From Octopus vulgaris (Eukaryota): DNA of 64,000 nucleotides. Made by a program: the position numbers and the translations under genes. The notes below the pieces were generated by a model. It made no database searches and was not told the DNA's origin. It saw only the letters and a program-made list of their open reading frames with translations. Each line of letters opens with the position of its first letter. The first letter of the stretch is position 1. Positions 29,869-60,463 of this stretch are shown here, piece by piece. The stretch is taken from the NCBI GenBank assembly GCA_951406725.2, contig OX597816.1, positions 59,024,001 to 59,088,000 of the forward strand. The letters are read 5' to 3'.

Positions 29869-29993
29869 ATTCCGTCAAAAGTTAGCAGAGCTCCTACAAA
29901 GCAATAAGGTGCAGTACACAATTATATTTTTTGTGATCATTGATGGTCTTATAGTCATTCTTGAACTGCTAATTGACTTGGACATCATTAAAC
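29869..29993 (+). CDS. HVCN1: Voltage-gated proton channel (Hv/HVCN1 family), exon encoding S0-S1 with the selectivity-filter Asp
   Basis: Acceptor tctattgtag|, donor |gtaagt. Reads FRQKLAELLQSNKVQYTIIFFVIIDGLIVILELLIDLDIIK, which aligns with human Hv1 [40 protein letters not shown]. The Asp codon GAT at 29942-29944 corresponds to D112. Starts phase 2, ends phase 1. May be a mollusc Hv paralogue rather than the strict orthologue. Confidence 0.92.
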
Positions 29994-30649
29994 GTAAGTA
30001 GAAATAATTTAGTCCTTTAATTGATTTTTACAACCTGAGAAGATCGTGTTCAAGAACTGTATATATTCCACCACATACAACTGTAACATATTCATCATCA
30101 TCATCACCATCACCATCATCATCACCATCACCATCATCATCACCATCACCATCATCATCATCATCGTCATCGTCATCGTCATCATCATCATCAACATCAT
30201 CATCATCGTCGTCGTCATCGTCGTCGTCTTCATCATCATCATCATCATCATCATCAATATCATCATTTTAGTCTCCACTTTTCCATGCTTGCATGGATTG
30301 GATGGAATTTGATAAGGTGGATATTCTACAGACAAATGCTCTTCCTGTTGCTGTCACATGTTTCCAAGTAAAGTAACATTTCCCTATGACCAGACATACC
30401 TCGGAAGATTGGAACTGACAGACACTGCTTGCATTATAATGACACATTTACAGCTATCATGACATGTCAGGGCAAGGAAACAGTTATATACACACACACA
30501 CACACAAACACCATACATGCACACACGCACACGCACATGCATACATAAACATACATATATACATGCACACACACACACATACATGTGGAAGTTCCAGAAT
30601 AATAGATTATTAAACCCTATTCTGGTATTGAGTATTTCTTTTTATGGAT

Positions 30650-31318
30650 GAGGAGATCTGTGTAAAGAAGTGCCACTCCCAAACAGTGGAAGGAATCCGG
30701 AGTAGGGGGAGACCCAGGAAGATATAGAATGAGGTGGTGAAGCTTGACCTTTGAACGTTGGGCCTCACAGACGCAATGACAAAGGACCAAGACCTCTGGA
30801 GATATGCTGTGACTGTGAAGGTCCGGCAAATAAAGTGAGTTCACAGCTGTAACCTACACAATTGTTGCATAACCAGTCCACTCAAAAGTACCTTGGATCA
30901 TAGGGGGACGTGCTGTGCTTGAGGAGACCTATTGAGTCAAGTACATCAAAGCCAAAATCAAATGGAAATTGTAGTTGTGATCCCCGTGCCAGTGGCACGT
31001 AAAAAGCATCATCTAAATGTGGTCAATGCCAGCGCCACCTTAACTGACTTCCATGCCAGTGGCACATAAAAAGCACCTACCAATTGTGGTCGTTGCCAGC
31101 CCCCTCAGCCCCTGTGCTGGTGGCATGTAAAAAGCACCCACTACACTCTCGGGGTGGTTGGCATTAGGAAGGGCATCCAGCTGTAGAAACACTGCCAGAT
31201 CAGACTGGAGCCTGGTGCAGCCCCTTGGCTTCCCAGACCCCAGTAAAACCGTCCAACCCATGCCACCATGGAAAACGGACATTAAACGATGATGATGATG
31301 ATGATGATGATGATGATG
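30650..31318 (+). mobile_element. Diverged 3' fragment of the RTE family seen at 23737
   Basis: Similar to 26800-26980 (gacccaggaa...gaggtggtgaagc), with the same tail and a (GAT)n end. Confidence 0.75.
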
Positions 31319-31763
31319 AATATTAAACAAACAATATCATTATTTTTGTTTTCATTCATAGGCAACATTTTACATGTATGGATTAATTCTTCACCTGCAT
31401 TTCTCAAAAGTATTTCAAACATTTGTTCCATTTATGCACACCACAGTGCTTCAAGCAAATGGCAACTCTCTTTTACTTATATATATATTTCTAGTATGCA
31501 ACTGATTATAGGCATATCTCTCTGAATCACAATCTTATAAACTTATACACACCATTCTAGAATTCCATTCTCATATCTTAGTTTTGCCAATTCTACTTTG
31601 TCCTATTCTGTTTCTATTCTCTATTATTATTGTCATCATCATCATCATCATCATTATTATTATTATTATTATTATTATTATTATTATTATTATTATTATG
31701 ATTATTATTAGTAGTAGTATTATCACTATTACTATTATTATTGTTATTGTTATTATTATTATT

Positions 31764-32515
31764 AAGGCAGCGAGTTGTCAGAATGATTAGCACACTGGGT
31801 GAAATGCTTAGCGGTACTTCACTCATCGCTATGTTCTGAGTTCAAATTCTGCCAAGGTCAATAAGTTAAGTACCAGTTGAATACTGGGGTCAATATAATC
31901 AACTTACTGCTCCCCCAAATTTCAGGCCTTGTGCCTATAGTAAAAAGGATTACTATTATTATTACTATTATAATATTATTATGACAGTGAGCTCTCAGAA
32001 TCATTAGCACACCAGGGAAAATGCTTAGTAGTATTTCATCTGCCTTCACGTTCTGAGTTCAAATTCCGCTGAGGTTGACTTTGCCTTTCATCCTTTCGGG
32101 GTCGATAAATTAAGTACCAGTAAAACACTTGGGTTGATAAAATGAAACAGTCCCCTCCCCCTCAATTTTATTTTTATTATTATTATTGTTGTTATTATTA
32201 TTATTATTATTATTATTATTATTATTATTATTATTATTATCATTATTATTATCATCATCATTATCATTATTATTATTATTAATATTATTACAATATTATT
32301 ATTATGGCAATAAACTGGCAGAATTGTTAGCACACCAGGCAAAATGCTTAGTGGTATTTTATCTCTCTTCATATTCTGAGTTCAAATTCCACTGGGGTCA
32401 ACTTTGCTTTTTGTTCTTTGGGGTCGATAAATAAGCATCAGTCAAGTACTGGGGTTGATGTAATCAACTATCCCCCTTCCCCAAATTTCAGGCCTTGTGC
32501 CTATAGTAGAAAAGA
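31764..32515 (+). mobile_element. Three tandem family-A SINEs embedded in (TTA)n tracts
   Basis: Repeated head ggcagcgagttgtcagaatgattagcac...ttctgagttcaaattc at ~31764, ~31985 and ~32306. Confidence 0.8.
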
Positions 32516-57700: not shown

Positions 57701-58304
57701 AACCAGTTTAAAAGTTAAAGGGTCATATGATAAGTCAAGACAAATAATGAACAATGTGGTCACTCAGTGTGCTAAAAATAGCCTTCAGATTCCCTTAAAA
57801 ACATTCAACTGTAAAAATTTTTAAATGGATATATTGGACAATGTAATCCAACATATATCTGAAAAATAAGTATAGTCTTTGCTGATGTAACTTTGATCCT
57901 AACTCTGCTTGATCAGAGTGCCTTTGAGGCAGACATCAATAACAGCATCAATGACTGATAATGTAAATGAAGAATATGTCATTCACAAACAGAACTAGAT
58001 TCAATACTTCCTATAAGCTAATATAGTTTTAGGTGGGTACTAGCCTGATATGCATCAAAATTCCATTAAATTATTTAATAGTACTATTACTAGTAGTAGT
58101 CTTATTAAAACATGCTGCATAAGTTGCCTGGAGTTATGGCAACAGCAATCAAATTATTAACCTTTTTGATAACAATTTGCCCAAGCCTGTTCATGGTTTT
58201 ATGATATTAAATTCCAGTTTAAAAGTGATTAAATTAAAATCTTCTATCAACATTTCTTGTTATTTCATGTTCCCAAACCAGCTTAATAATTTTACTAAAT
58301 TCCT

Positions 58305-60055
58305 TGCCCTTCCTCTTCCGATCAGCTCCCGAGTTCCTGTCAGCTCCCCAGCTGCTGATGTCATCCCACACGCCACCCTGATCTTAAAGATCACATCTCC
58401 TCTACACCACGTTAAAGTCCACCATCCAACCGGGCGGGCGCCTTGCGCATTGAGATCTCCTCAAGCTAGGCACCTCGTTCTCCTCCTCTCCACAATTGTC
58501 ATCCAATGAAGAGACAATCCTGCGAAGGTCCAAGACATATCGCAGCATCCCATCCACGGAGACGTTGTTTCTGGAATTGACCGACGTCACCGTTCCTCTG
58601 CTCCATTGAGACATACAGCGCGCCTTTGGTGGCTTAACCCAGACTTCCTCCCCTATTTTCACATGCGTAACATCTCAACACAAACGTCCATCACCTCGTC
58701 TCCCATGTACCATGATATATGCTCGTTCAGCTCTTTACAGTCCAGCACCGGTCTGACTTTTCCCTTCGTCGGCTGCACCACCGCCACCAGATGTAGCACT
58801 CCACTCACCACCTCCTCCTTCCATGGGACAAGGACTCCTTCTTTGATCCATCTCTCTACCTCGTCTTCGAACTTGATCCTGGTGTGACCTTTCAAGGTAC
58901 ACTGGTAGCAGCACACCCTGTTCTTCAGCATCAGGGGCTTGTCTTTCCATCGCCACTCTATCATCCGCCACTGACCACTGAACGCTGCCTGAAAATCCTT
59001 GTCCTCAATGGTGTAAGCGGCGCAGTCCCTCGTGGAGCTCTGCTCTCTCTGGCGATCCTGACTCACAGCGCACGACACACTCACACTTCTGAACGTGACC
59101 TCATCTCCTGCAATACTGACACCACCGAGGCGGTTGATAGCATTCATCTCCATCACCACATCAACCCCGTCTATCACGCATTTGAACACAATTACCTGCA
59201 GCCTTAGCGTCGCACCTCACACTGCTATCTCTACATTGCTGCCGGCCTTACATCGGATTTCACTGCCGTCGACCTCCCAGACGCTACTTGCCTCACTCCA
59301 TTTCTTTGACACCCATGGAGTCATGAGGGTGGTCGTGCAACCTGTATCCACGAGGGCCTTGAACATTCCCTTGGCCTCGACATCAATTATGGGCAGTGTC
59401 TCCAAAAGCGCCTCTACTCGTTTGCGGGGAAAGTTTGAGAGGCAGCAACTTCCCCACAGTCGTTTCCCTGGTCACAATCACGGGCGATGTACCTTGTCTG
59501 TCTGCATCGATAGCAGACGGGCCCCAGTTGTGTACACTCCCTTGACATGTGCGACCCCTGACATTTAAAACACCGGCCTGAGAACGGCTGCTGTCATTAC
59601 ACGGTAGGCTTCTTCACGTCTTTCTCCGGCCATTGTCCGTCTTTATGCGCCTCCGTTACCACCATCACTGTCGTCTTCCATCCAGTCTTTCACGTCATCA
59701 CACGAGCTTGAGCCACAAGTTCACTCAGCTGCCATCGTGGTGACGTCTTATGTGGAGTGCCGAAATAGCTCATGGTGAATGTGGGAGATTAAAAGTAAGA
59801 CACCTACCTTCTCTTCATCAACACAGACCTCTCCGATGGTAACAAACTCTTCCACGTGGCCCAAACCGAAACACTAAAAATAGCAGCTGCTGTCCCTCAC
59901 ATTGTCGCAGCGCTCACACATCCAGCAACTCTCGGCTACTCCAATCGAAACGGCCCAATCATCTCATGCCGGTGCGCGCGTCACCTATGTGCCCTTCCTC
60001 TTCGGGTCAGTTCCCAAGTTCCGGTCAGCTCCCCAGCTGCTGACATCATCCCACA
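58305..60055 (-). mobile_element. Internally deleted Gypsy-type LTR element
   Basis: 5' LTR 59780-60055 with TGTGGGA...TCCCACA termini and a partial LTR copy at 58305-58370; gag CCHC knuckle CFKCQGSHMSREC, protease ALVDTG, RT start (EVERWIKEGVL...KVRPVLD) joined directly to an integrase C-terminal GEEVWVKPP region. Confidence 0.85.
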
Positions 60056-60372
60056 ATTGAAACAAAACAATGTACTTTATGAGAAAAATGGTAATAGGAG
60101 GGTCAAGCATTTTAGCATTTAATTTTAATCCCTTTGTCATCAATCCACCCGAGGCCATCCCTGGTTCTAGAGCACAAGTATCCTGTTTCGAAGTGATATA
60201 AATTCCATTAAAATTTCATGTTAATTTAAGTTCCAAGCACCAGCTTAATAATGACAAAATTACTGTGCTAAATTCTTAATTATTTTAAAAATTAATTGAA
60301 GCAAAAGTTGGATATTTCAGCAGAAATATGGTAATGAAAAAGTTAAATGTTATCTTCATTTTACTCTAACAG

Positions 60373-60463
60373 GAAGAATTAGAATCGGTTCGGAAAAAGC
60401 AGAAAAAGGACGATGGCAAATCACTTGAAAGTGTATCCCAAAAGACGGATGATGATTTAATGG
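60373..60463 (+). CDS. HVCN1: Probable Hv channel exon: coiled-coil end and C-terminal tail; the gene continues downstream
   Basis: Pyrimidine-rich acceptor ttttactctaacag|, phase 0; donor G|gtaagt. Reads EELESVRKKQKKDDGKSLESVSQKTDDDLM, continuing the coiled coil. Homology is weaker than in the TM exons. Confidence 0.72.

Follow-up and report, generated by a model that had tools for sequence, protein, structure and literature searches.

The stretch of DNA considered here, 64,000 nucleotides of Octopus vulgaris (assembly GCA_951406725.2, contig OX597816.1, positions 59,024,001 to 59,088,000; hereafter the window), carries on its forward strand part of a gene for a voltage-gated proton channel (Hv). 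The reading that we favor, and consider probable as a whole, is that this channel is the octopus Hv2, in which a two-part, histidine-rich loop between transmembrane segments S1 and S2 supplements the canonical zinc site. That the gene is the orthologue of molluscan Hv2 seems nearly certain from the comparisons described below, and that it encodes a working proton channel is highly probable. Judging from 18 aligned molluscan Hv2 sequences, a long His-rich outer loop is a shared trait of the Hv2 type, and it splits into a His cassette conserved by position and a predicted disordered part conserved by composition. The gene does not represent a new kind of channel, and its description is mainly one of annotation, the paralogue type and its His-rich loop being already in print. 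What appears to be new, in that it was not found in the literature consulted, is the His cluster next to S2, the coleoid helix and the cephalopod tail of about 340 amino acids (aa) with its micro-exon.

The original prediction, made from the letters of the window, had joined six exons in frame, and this assembly holds: the exons have AG/GT borders, their joined translation of 312 aa is free of stops, and it is an exact substring (residues 33-344) of P0001, a 665-aa Octopus vulgaris database protein that the exons match at 100% (tblastn). The whole gene is approximately 152 kb long and the window holds only part of it, the first coding exon (residues 1-32) lying about 71 kb upstream and the last exon some 17 kb past the end of the window. 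The parts within the window are the following, in P0001 numbering and with human Hv1 residues given as equivalents.

29869..29993, forward strand: coding exon 2, S0 and S1 (residues 33-73), with the E119 and D123 equivalents (tblastn at 100%, AG/GT borders, alignment to human Hv1, 5OQK)
29942-29944, forward strand: codon of the selectivity-filter Asp57, in coding exon 2 (alignment to 5OQK)
34047..34459, forward strand: coding exon 3, His-rich extracellular S1-S2 loop and first half of S2 (translation, residue counts, contigs)
34256..34309, forward strand: predicted amphipathic helix spanning residues about 142-159, with the NST sequon after it (AlphaFold, alignment, hydrophobic moment)
34376..34420, forward strand: S2-proximal His cassette, H184/H185/H187 ... 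H195-x-x-H198, where H198 is the H140 equivalent (18-sequence Hv2 alignment)
35550..35603, forward strand: coding exon 4, end of S2 and S2-S3 linker; H226 is the H168 equivalent
44098..44236, forward strand: coding exon 5, S3, Hv2-type S3-S4 linker, S4 and the N214 equivalent
44206-44226, forward strand: RLWRITR of S4, in coding exon 5
48842..48957, forward strand: coding exon 6, S4 extension and predicted coiled coil
60373..60463, forward strand: coding exon 7, end of the coiled coil and start of the long, predicted disordered tail; further exons lie beyond the window

The exon that encodes the loop (413 nucleotides, nt) comprises 137 whole codons, among them 23 His, 12 Asp and 11 Glu, with the sequons NST and NNS, in agreement with the counts first given. 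A concern had been raised that transcripts might skip this segment, and a check of the junctions was proposed. Of 24 sequencing runs listed, 20 contain the exon or part of it and none is on record as RNA; the contigs of four runs, from four studies, were aligned to positions 33600-35100 and splicing was read from their shape. In all four runs one contig spans 34047-34461 without differences and extends into other sequence on both sides (in one example the region occupies positions 447-861 of a 3464-nt contig), depth is 0 in the flanking intron bins 33906-34007 and 34467-34670, and the two bases past 34459 match those with which the next exon begins. Contigs of this form are expected from a spliced transcript that carries the entire His segment, and the gene is expressed; contigs drop rare isoforms, so that minor skipping of the exon could be missed, and the partner exons lie outside the aligned region. 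No internal start within the exon was seen among the contigs listed for the four runs, and the internal AG sites have poorer pyrimidine tracts than the true acceptor, with the exception of one located 6 nt in (34053). The loop is also included in the gene models of O. bimaculoides, O. sinensis and Argonauta, and in an assembly-derived protein of 744 aa that falls in one cluster with a Sepia entry.

The channel residues named by the original prediction are all present in the alignment to 5OQK: D57, E64, D68, H198, F208, E211, D232, D243 and N275 correspond to human D112, E119, D123, H140, F150, E153, D174, D185 and N214 (human numbering in part from a table in PMC7754295). Asp57 is invariant in 35 of 35 aligned proteins, and the S4 signature RxWRxxR is found as R266-L-W268-R269-I-T-R272. 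The Asp of LLID (D123 equivalent) stands 130 residues before the H140 equivalent, the distance that had been estimated, and the octopus S3-S4 linker, three residues longer than in Hv1, contains no His, with V251 at the H193 position, as had also been noticed. The AlphaFold model has four transmembrane helices (44-68, 189-225, 227-248 and 255-331) and no pore domain, and a Pfam Ion_trans match covers 192-275 only. The last of these helices is continuous and reaches a predicted local distance difference test (pLDDT) of 83-98 over about residues 281-330; together with weak matches to coiled-coil families at 273-340 it suggests a coiled coil. The best sequence matches with structures are human Hv1 (5OQK, E 9.6e-23) and a mouse Hv1 chimera (3WKV, E 1.2e-21), which are also the top two fold matches in Foldseek, at E 0.04-0.06 only; given the low confidence of most of the model (mean pLDDT 52), none of the Foldseek matches reached E<=0.001.

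The assignment to Hv2 is based on several comparisons. In a tree of 35 rows (148 columns, loop excluded, root not inferred), 18 long-loop mollusc sequences lie on one side of a branch with support 100/99; they belong to cephalopods, scallops, abalone, caenogastropods and pulmonates, and are set apart from molluscan Hv1, vertebrate Hv1 and a second octopus Hv gene, the Hv1 on contig C16. The phylogeny that had been called for is thereby provided in its molluscan and vertebrate parts, its TMEM266 part being missing; the tree also omits Hv3 sequences, P0064 and P0011 (distant, protist-like), most near-identical fish Hv1 matches and partial Hv3-like exons. Searches with the transmembrane part find mollusc proteins at 54-68% identity over the region from S2 to the coil or nearby, well above ordinary Hv1. 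Counted by hand from S2 to the start of the coil, the octopus protein has 63 of 91 residues identical to Aplysia californica Hv2 (AcHv2), with no gap, and 45 of 91 identical to AcHv1, with a gap of three residues (sequences printed in the supplement of PMC10377628).

With respect to the traits that distinguish the Hv types, the octopus loop has 129 aa, 22 His and 2 sequons together with a canonical S4, as in Hv2, and its C-terminus of 390 aa departs from the ordinary-length termini of that type (70-90 aa in AcHv2, a descriptive rather than strictly defining trait). The Hv3 motif xPWRxxR, in which R1 is missing, does not occur in this gene; it is found as LPWR at two other loci, L002 (near 5369) and L008, which lie about 0.5 Mb apart on opposite strands of contig C25. 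Asp57 also differs from the Val of TMEM266 at the D112 position, a comparison limited to this residue. The octopus genome thus has four Hv genes in all: the His-loop gene, the separate Hv1 on C16 and the two Hv3-like genes on C25. A genome search with PF00520 gave 71 matches, none of them at the locus of the His-loop gene or at the C16 Hv1. The count of four Hv genes matches the one that a review reports for O. bimaculoides, XM_014930220 being among the four accessions it gives. In that species the orthologue of the His-loop gene is LOC106880339/XP_014785706.1, which, from an offset between accession numbers, is presumably the same gene as XM_014930220.

The loop comparison across species that had been proposed shows a His-rich loop in 18 of 18 Hv2 sequences, of cephalopods and other molluscs alike: loops are 68-138 residues long, with 12-26 His (13.8-20.6%) and 1-6 sequons. 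The number of His rises with loop length (Spearman 0.85, n=18) and the His fraction does not (rho -0.24, p 0.33). The cytoplasmic C-termini have 0-3.4% His in 13 of 14 usable sequences, with Arion (11.9%) as the exception; three near-duplicates among the 18 were dropped for this comparison, leaving 15, and one 1-residue fragment was set aside. Fixed positions are found only just before S2, where His stands at offsets -13, -12, -11, -3 and 0 from the H140 equivalent in 16, 13, 13, 16 and 18 of the 18 Hv2 sequences, and in 0, 7, 0, 3 and 16 of 16 short-loop Hv sequences. One search with the loop exon found three octopod proteins only, another a single cluster representative among 1.84 billion, and the exon gave no Pfam match at E<=0.1. 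The modeled loop lies below pLDDT 50 except for helix 142-159, at about 55, which is kept in all four cephalopod sequences (octopods and cuttlefish) with a hydrophobic moment of 0.30-0.40. Two other elements were considered and rejected: an additional transmembrane helix, given that the loop is too polar to span the membrane (KD19 maximum 0.64 vs 1.4-2.8), and a conserved furin site, with RxxR in 2 of 15 loops and in none of the cephalopods.

The extracellular position of the loop and its richness in His and acidic residues had been correctly recognized, and the further claim that it replaces the canonical Zn site is unsupported. The octopus protein keeps all the positions D112, E119, D123, H140 and D185, which are tabulated for Zn binding in PMC7754295, and the H193 equivalent is missing, with no His in the S3-S4 linker, in 18 of 18 Hv2 and in 8 of 16 short-loop Hv sequences. 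NpHv1 and CiHv1 also have no H193 equivalent, and in them a single His of S2 carries most of the Zn inhibition despite other His in the loop (PMC7754295). The corresponding region of EhHv1 has ten His, and mutating either of two of them is enough to remove the sensitivity to Zn (PMC7754295). Zn inhibits all three AcHv channels, less than the mammalian ones (PMC10911540). Since the canonical ligands are intact and the loss of H193 is common, no replacement site is called for. A connection with haemocyanin had been proposed as well; scallops, which are not known to have haemocyanin, have the loop (17-20 His in three orthologues), and the link is therefore weak.

A side observation concerns the octopus Hv1 paralogue (L001:2335-2841, contig C16), whose S1-S4 lie within one exon. 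At the H140 position, where His is invariant in the 35 aligned proteins, it carries Arg, and its S3-S4 linker contains a His located two residues ahead of the H193 position. Of the octopus Hv channels, this may therefore be the one whose Zn site is altered.

It had been left undecided whether this paralogue was already characterized. Its Aplysia orthologue is: AcHv2 (XM_005093050) was patch-clamped in 2022 and its loop described as having 79 residues and 14 His, with no tertiary structure in preliminary molecular dynamics (MD) simulations (Chaves et al., FEBS J, PMC10911540). The same work finds that AcHv2 is proton selective, opens negative to the proton reversal potential and passes inward current, its expression being strong in gut and gill; it also mentions similar genes in cephalopods (PMC10911540). 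Neither a cephalopod Hv recording nor a deletion study of an Hv2 loop was found in the literature searched, and paywalled papers or image-only supplements may hold either.

By analogy with AcHv2, the octopus protein is predicted to give a proton-selective, voltage- and delta-pH-gated current, as a dimer held by the C-terminal coiled coil, and opening at negative voltages with inward current is somewhat favored over the opposite. The His cassette at the outer end of S2, together with E64, D68 and H198, would form a likely external site sensitive to H+ and Zn2+, and would probably help to set the voltage range of opening; in a fungal Hv, a swap of the S1-S2 loop shifted the conductance-voltage (G-V) curve by -29 mV (PMC7910559). 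The distal part of the loop can be pictured as a disordered, probably N-glycosylated polyampholyte whose composition (about 17% His, acidic residues, sequons) is kept while sequence and length drift, and which would buffer protons locally and bind metals weakly close to the outer mouth, as a supplement to the canonical site. The loop would thus probably adjust channel opening to external pH and metals for the most part by way of the cassette, and we lean slightly toward the cassette mattering more than the distal loop.

A number of observations weigh against this reading. The loop as a whole is no better conserved than the disordered tail (octopus-cuttlefish identity 37% vs 39%, octopus-Argonauta 65% vs 56%). 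From octopus to cuttlefish, His positions are kept in 13 of 20 cases vs 29 of 94 for other positions (p=0.009), a retention that is not significant in comparison with O. bimaculoides (p=0.38) or Argonauta (p=0.20) and that may be inflated by the scoring of His-His pairs in the alignment. The extra loop His of NpHv1 and CiHv1 did not rescue Zn inhibition once the H140 equivalent was lost (PMC7754295). The shift with external pH (pHo) is 44 mV/unit in AcHv2 vs 43-45 in the short-loop AcHv1 (PMC10911540), and since these slopes are equal the loop has no visible effect on pHo sensing. Moreover, the grouping of AcHv2, which is outside the tree, with the octopus gene is a matter of hand comparison, the function of the octopus protein is predicted from sequence and from the Aplysia orthologue, and a C-terminus of 390 aa, unlike the 70-90 aa of AcHv2, could alter location or gating.

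Another way of looking at the loop is to consider all of it as a proton-collecting antenna, in which an array of His and carboxylates feeds the outer mouth and sustains inward H+ current at the pH of blood or seawater. This is unlikely, and yet several facts agree with it: all 18 loops keep a His fraction of 14-21%; the computed charge of the loop goes from +5 at pH 5.5 to -14.5 at pH 8.1 (assumed pKa 6.5 and 4.2); the loop-bearing Aplysia Hv2 is the one with inward current; and Hv flux is reported above the diffusion limit, while other proteins are believed to use clusters of His and carboxylates as antennas (PMC12569838). However, an antenna is a kinetic aid that cannot by itself shift the threshold, the loop is for the most part predicted to be disordered, and that part may be distant from the mouth, and not all Hv channels with inward current are known to have such loops. 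The shared pHo slope of AcHv2 and loop-less AcHv1 also argues against a large effect on pH sensing.

It has to be asked, too, if the distal loop is a near-neutral glycosylated spacer, serving trafficking, stability or the binding of a partner through its amphipathic helix, with no effect on proton handling; this overlaps in part with the favored reading of a two-part loop. The equal identity of loop and tail, the two-fold variation in length, the restriction of the loop-exon matches to cephalopod relatives, the sequons in every loop and the lack of tertiary structure of the AcHv2 loop in MD all point in this direction. Neutral drift, on the other hand, would not hold about 17% His in bivalves, gastropods and cephalopods against about 2% in cytoplasmic regions, which makes the proposal doubtful.

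A broader proposal joins these elements: Hv2 would be an inward-current channel with a tethered proton reservoir, a His/carboxylate polyampholyte selected for composition (about 20 charge units across pH 5.5-8.1), and with a cassette that pulls gating negative, to which coleoids would have added a docking helix and a long signaling tail, giving a candidate external-pH sensor or depolarizer in gill, gut or neurons. Taken as a whole it is improbable.

A metal sponge or decoy, binding Zn2+, Cu2+ or Ni2+ so as to shield the canonical site (or, as first proposed, to replace it), is very unlikely. Poly-His does bind these metals, AcHv2 is weakly inhibited by Zn, and in 15 loops the pairs HH (62 vs 44.6), HxxH (59 vs 43.8) and HxxxH (65 vs 43.4) exceed shuffles, but HxH is not enriched (39 vs 44.3) and orthologues are not independent. 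Furthermore, AcHv1, without the loop, is also weakly inhibited, the intact canonical ligands leave nothing to be replaced, a tethered stoichiometric binder saturates at steady state, and scallops carry the loop too. Finally, an Hv3-like or TMEM266-like protein, leaking protons or non-conducting, is scarcely credible: the short N-terminus and very long C-terminus are like those of AcHv3 (35 and 535 aa), but S4 is RLWRITR and not LPWR, the D112 and N214 equivalents are present and the true LPWR paralogues are elsewhere in the genome.

The octopus C-terminus is predicted to be disordered after residue 335. Given that three caenogastropod members of the clade also have long loops (130-138) and C-termini (211-348 aa), the length of loop or tail alone is not specific to cephalopods. 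Within the tail (residues 326-665, mostly beyond the window), octopods and cuttlefish have short motifs in common, namely SKSMF, PPVF, GSPKH, AIILPP, LKSPRQ and a terminal KDPGAPR, whose conservation suggests docking or phosphorylation sites. A 48-nt micro-exon (L004:1578-1625 approx., contig C3, just beyond the window) adds 16 residues to the tail; some isoforms include it and others do not, and as both forms exist in octopus and cuttlefish, its alternative splicing is conserved. At 55002-55049, on the forward strand, a strong-looking acceptor is followed by 15 in-frame codons and a stop, a candidate last exon for a short isoform with about 329 aa, which is as long as ordinary Hv2 proteins are.

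The introns also contain mobile elements. An uninterrupted frame of 1050 codons at 23833-26982 (forward strand), with endonuclease, reverse transcriptase and PHD-like domains, is by its domain content a long interspersed nuclear element (LINE) retrotransposon inside the long first intron of the gene. Broken pol-like frames of long terminal repeat (LTR) retrotransposons lie in introns on the reverse strand at 58263-59471 and 62136-63998 (protease, reverse transcriptase and RNase H-like motifs, by eye), and a short interspersed repeat at 33750-33855 occurs at extreme abundance in each of the four runs (depth adding up to as much as about 100,000), with similar copies recurring across the introns.

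The division of the loop into a cassette and a disordered part offers a clean mutational design for asking why Hv2 opens at negative voltage and what the loop is for. Should the loop turn out to be a proton antenna or a device for gating by pH, this would be relevant to the way in which Hv channels exceed the diffusion-limited supply of protons and to the responses of cephalopods to acidification.

Among known systems, AcHv2 is the closest. It shares with the octopus protein the S1 Asp, RxWRxxR, the H140 equivalent, an S3-S4 linker three residues longer and free of His, and a loop that ends in the same cassette, HHH-x-N/D-K-E-x-A-E-H-x-L-H. The octopus loop differs in being about 1.6 times longer (129 aa and 22 His between the D123 and H140 equivalents vs 79 aa and 14 His by the authors' count) and in having a predicted helix; the octopus C-terminus is far longer (390 vs 70-90 aa) and the H168 position is His instead of Gln. 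Human Hv1 (HVCN1, 5OQK) and the mouse chimera 3WKV have the same pore, gasket and S4 residues, whereas the human channel has an S1-S2 loop of 16 residues, H193, a short C-terminus and outward current. AcHv3 and molluscan Hv3 resemble the octopus protein in that their S1-S2 loop is long and contains His, their N-terminus is short and their C-terminus very long, and differ from its full RxWRxxR in having LPWRxxR, weak voltage dependence and leak. In the coccolithophore EhHv1 and other protist Hv channels the S1-S2 loop is likewise extended and His-rich, and His near S2 control Zn sensitivity, but these belong to a separate lineage, with an RxWRxxRxxH motif and Cys-containing loops. Bivalve CgHv4 has a comparably longer S3-S4 linker in the printed alignment (PMC10377628), in an otherwise minimal protein with a short loop and Lys at the third S4 position.

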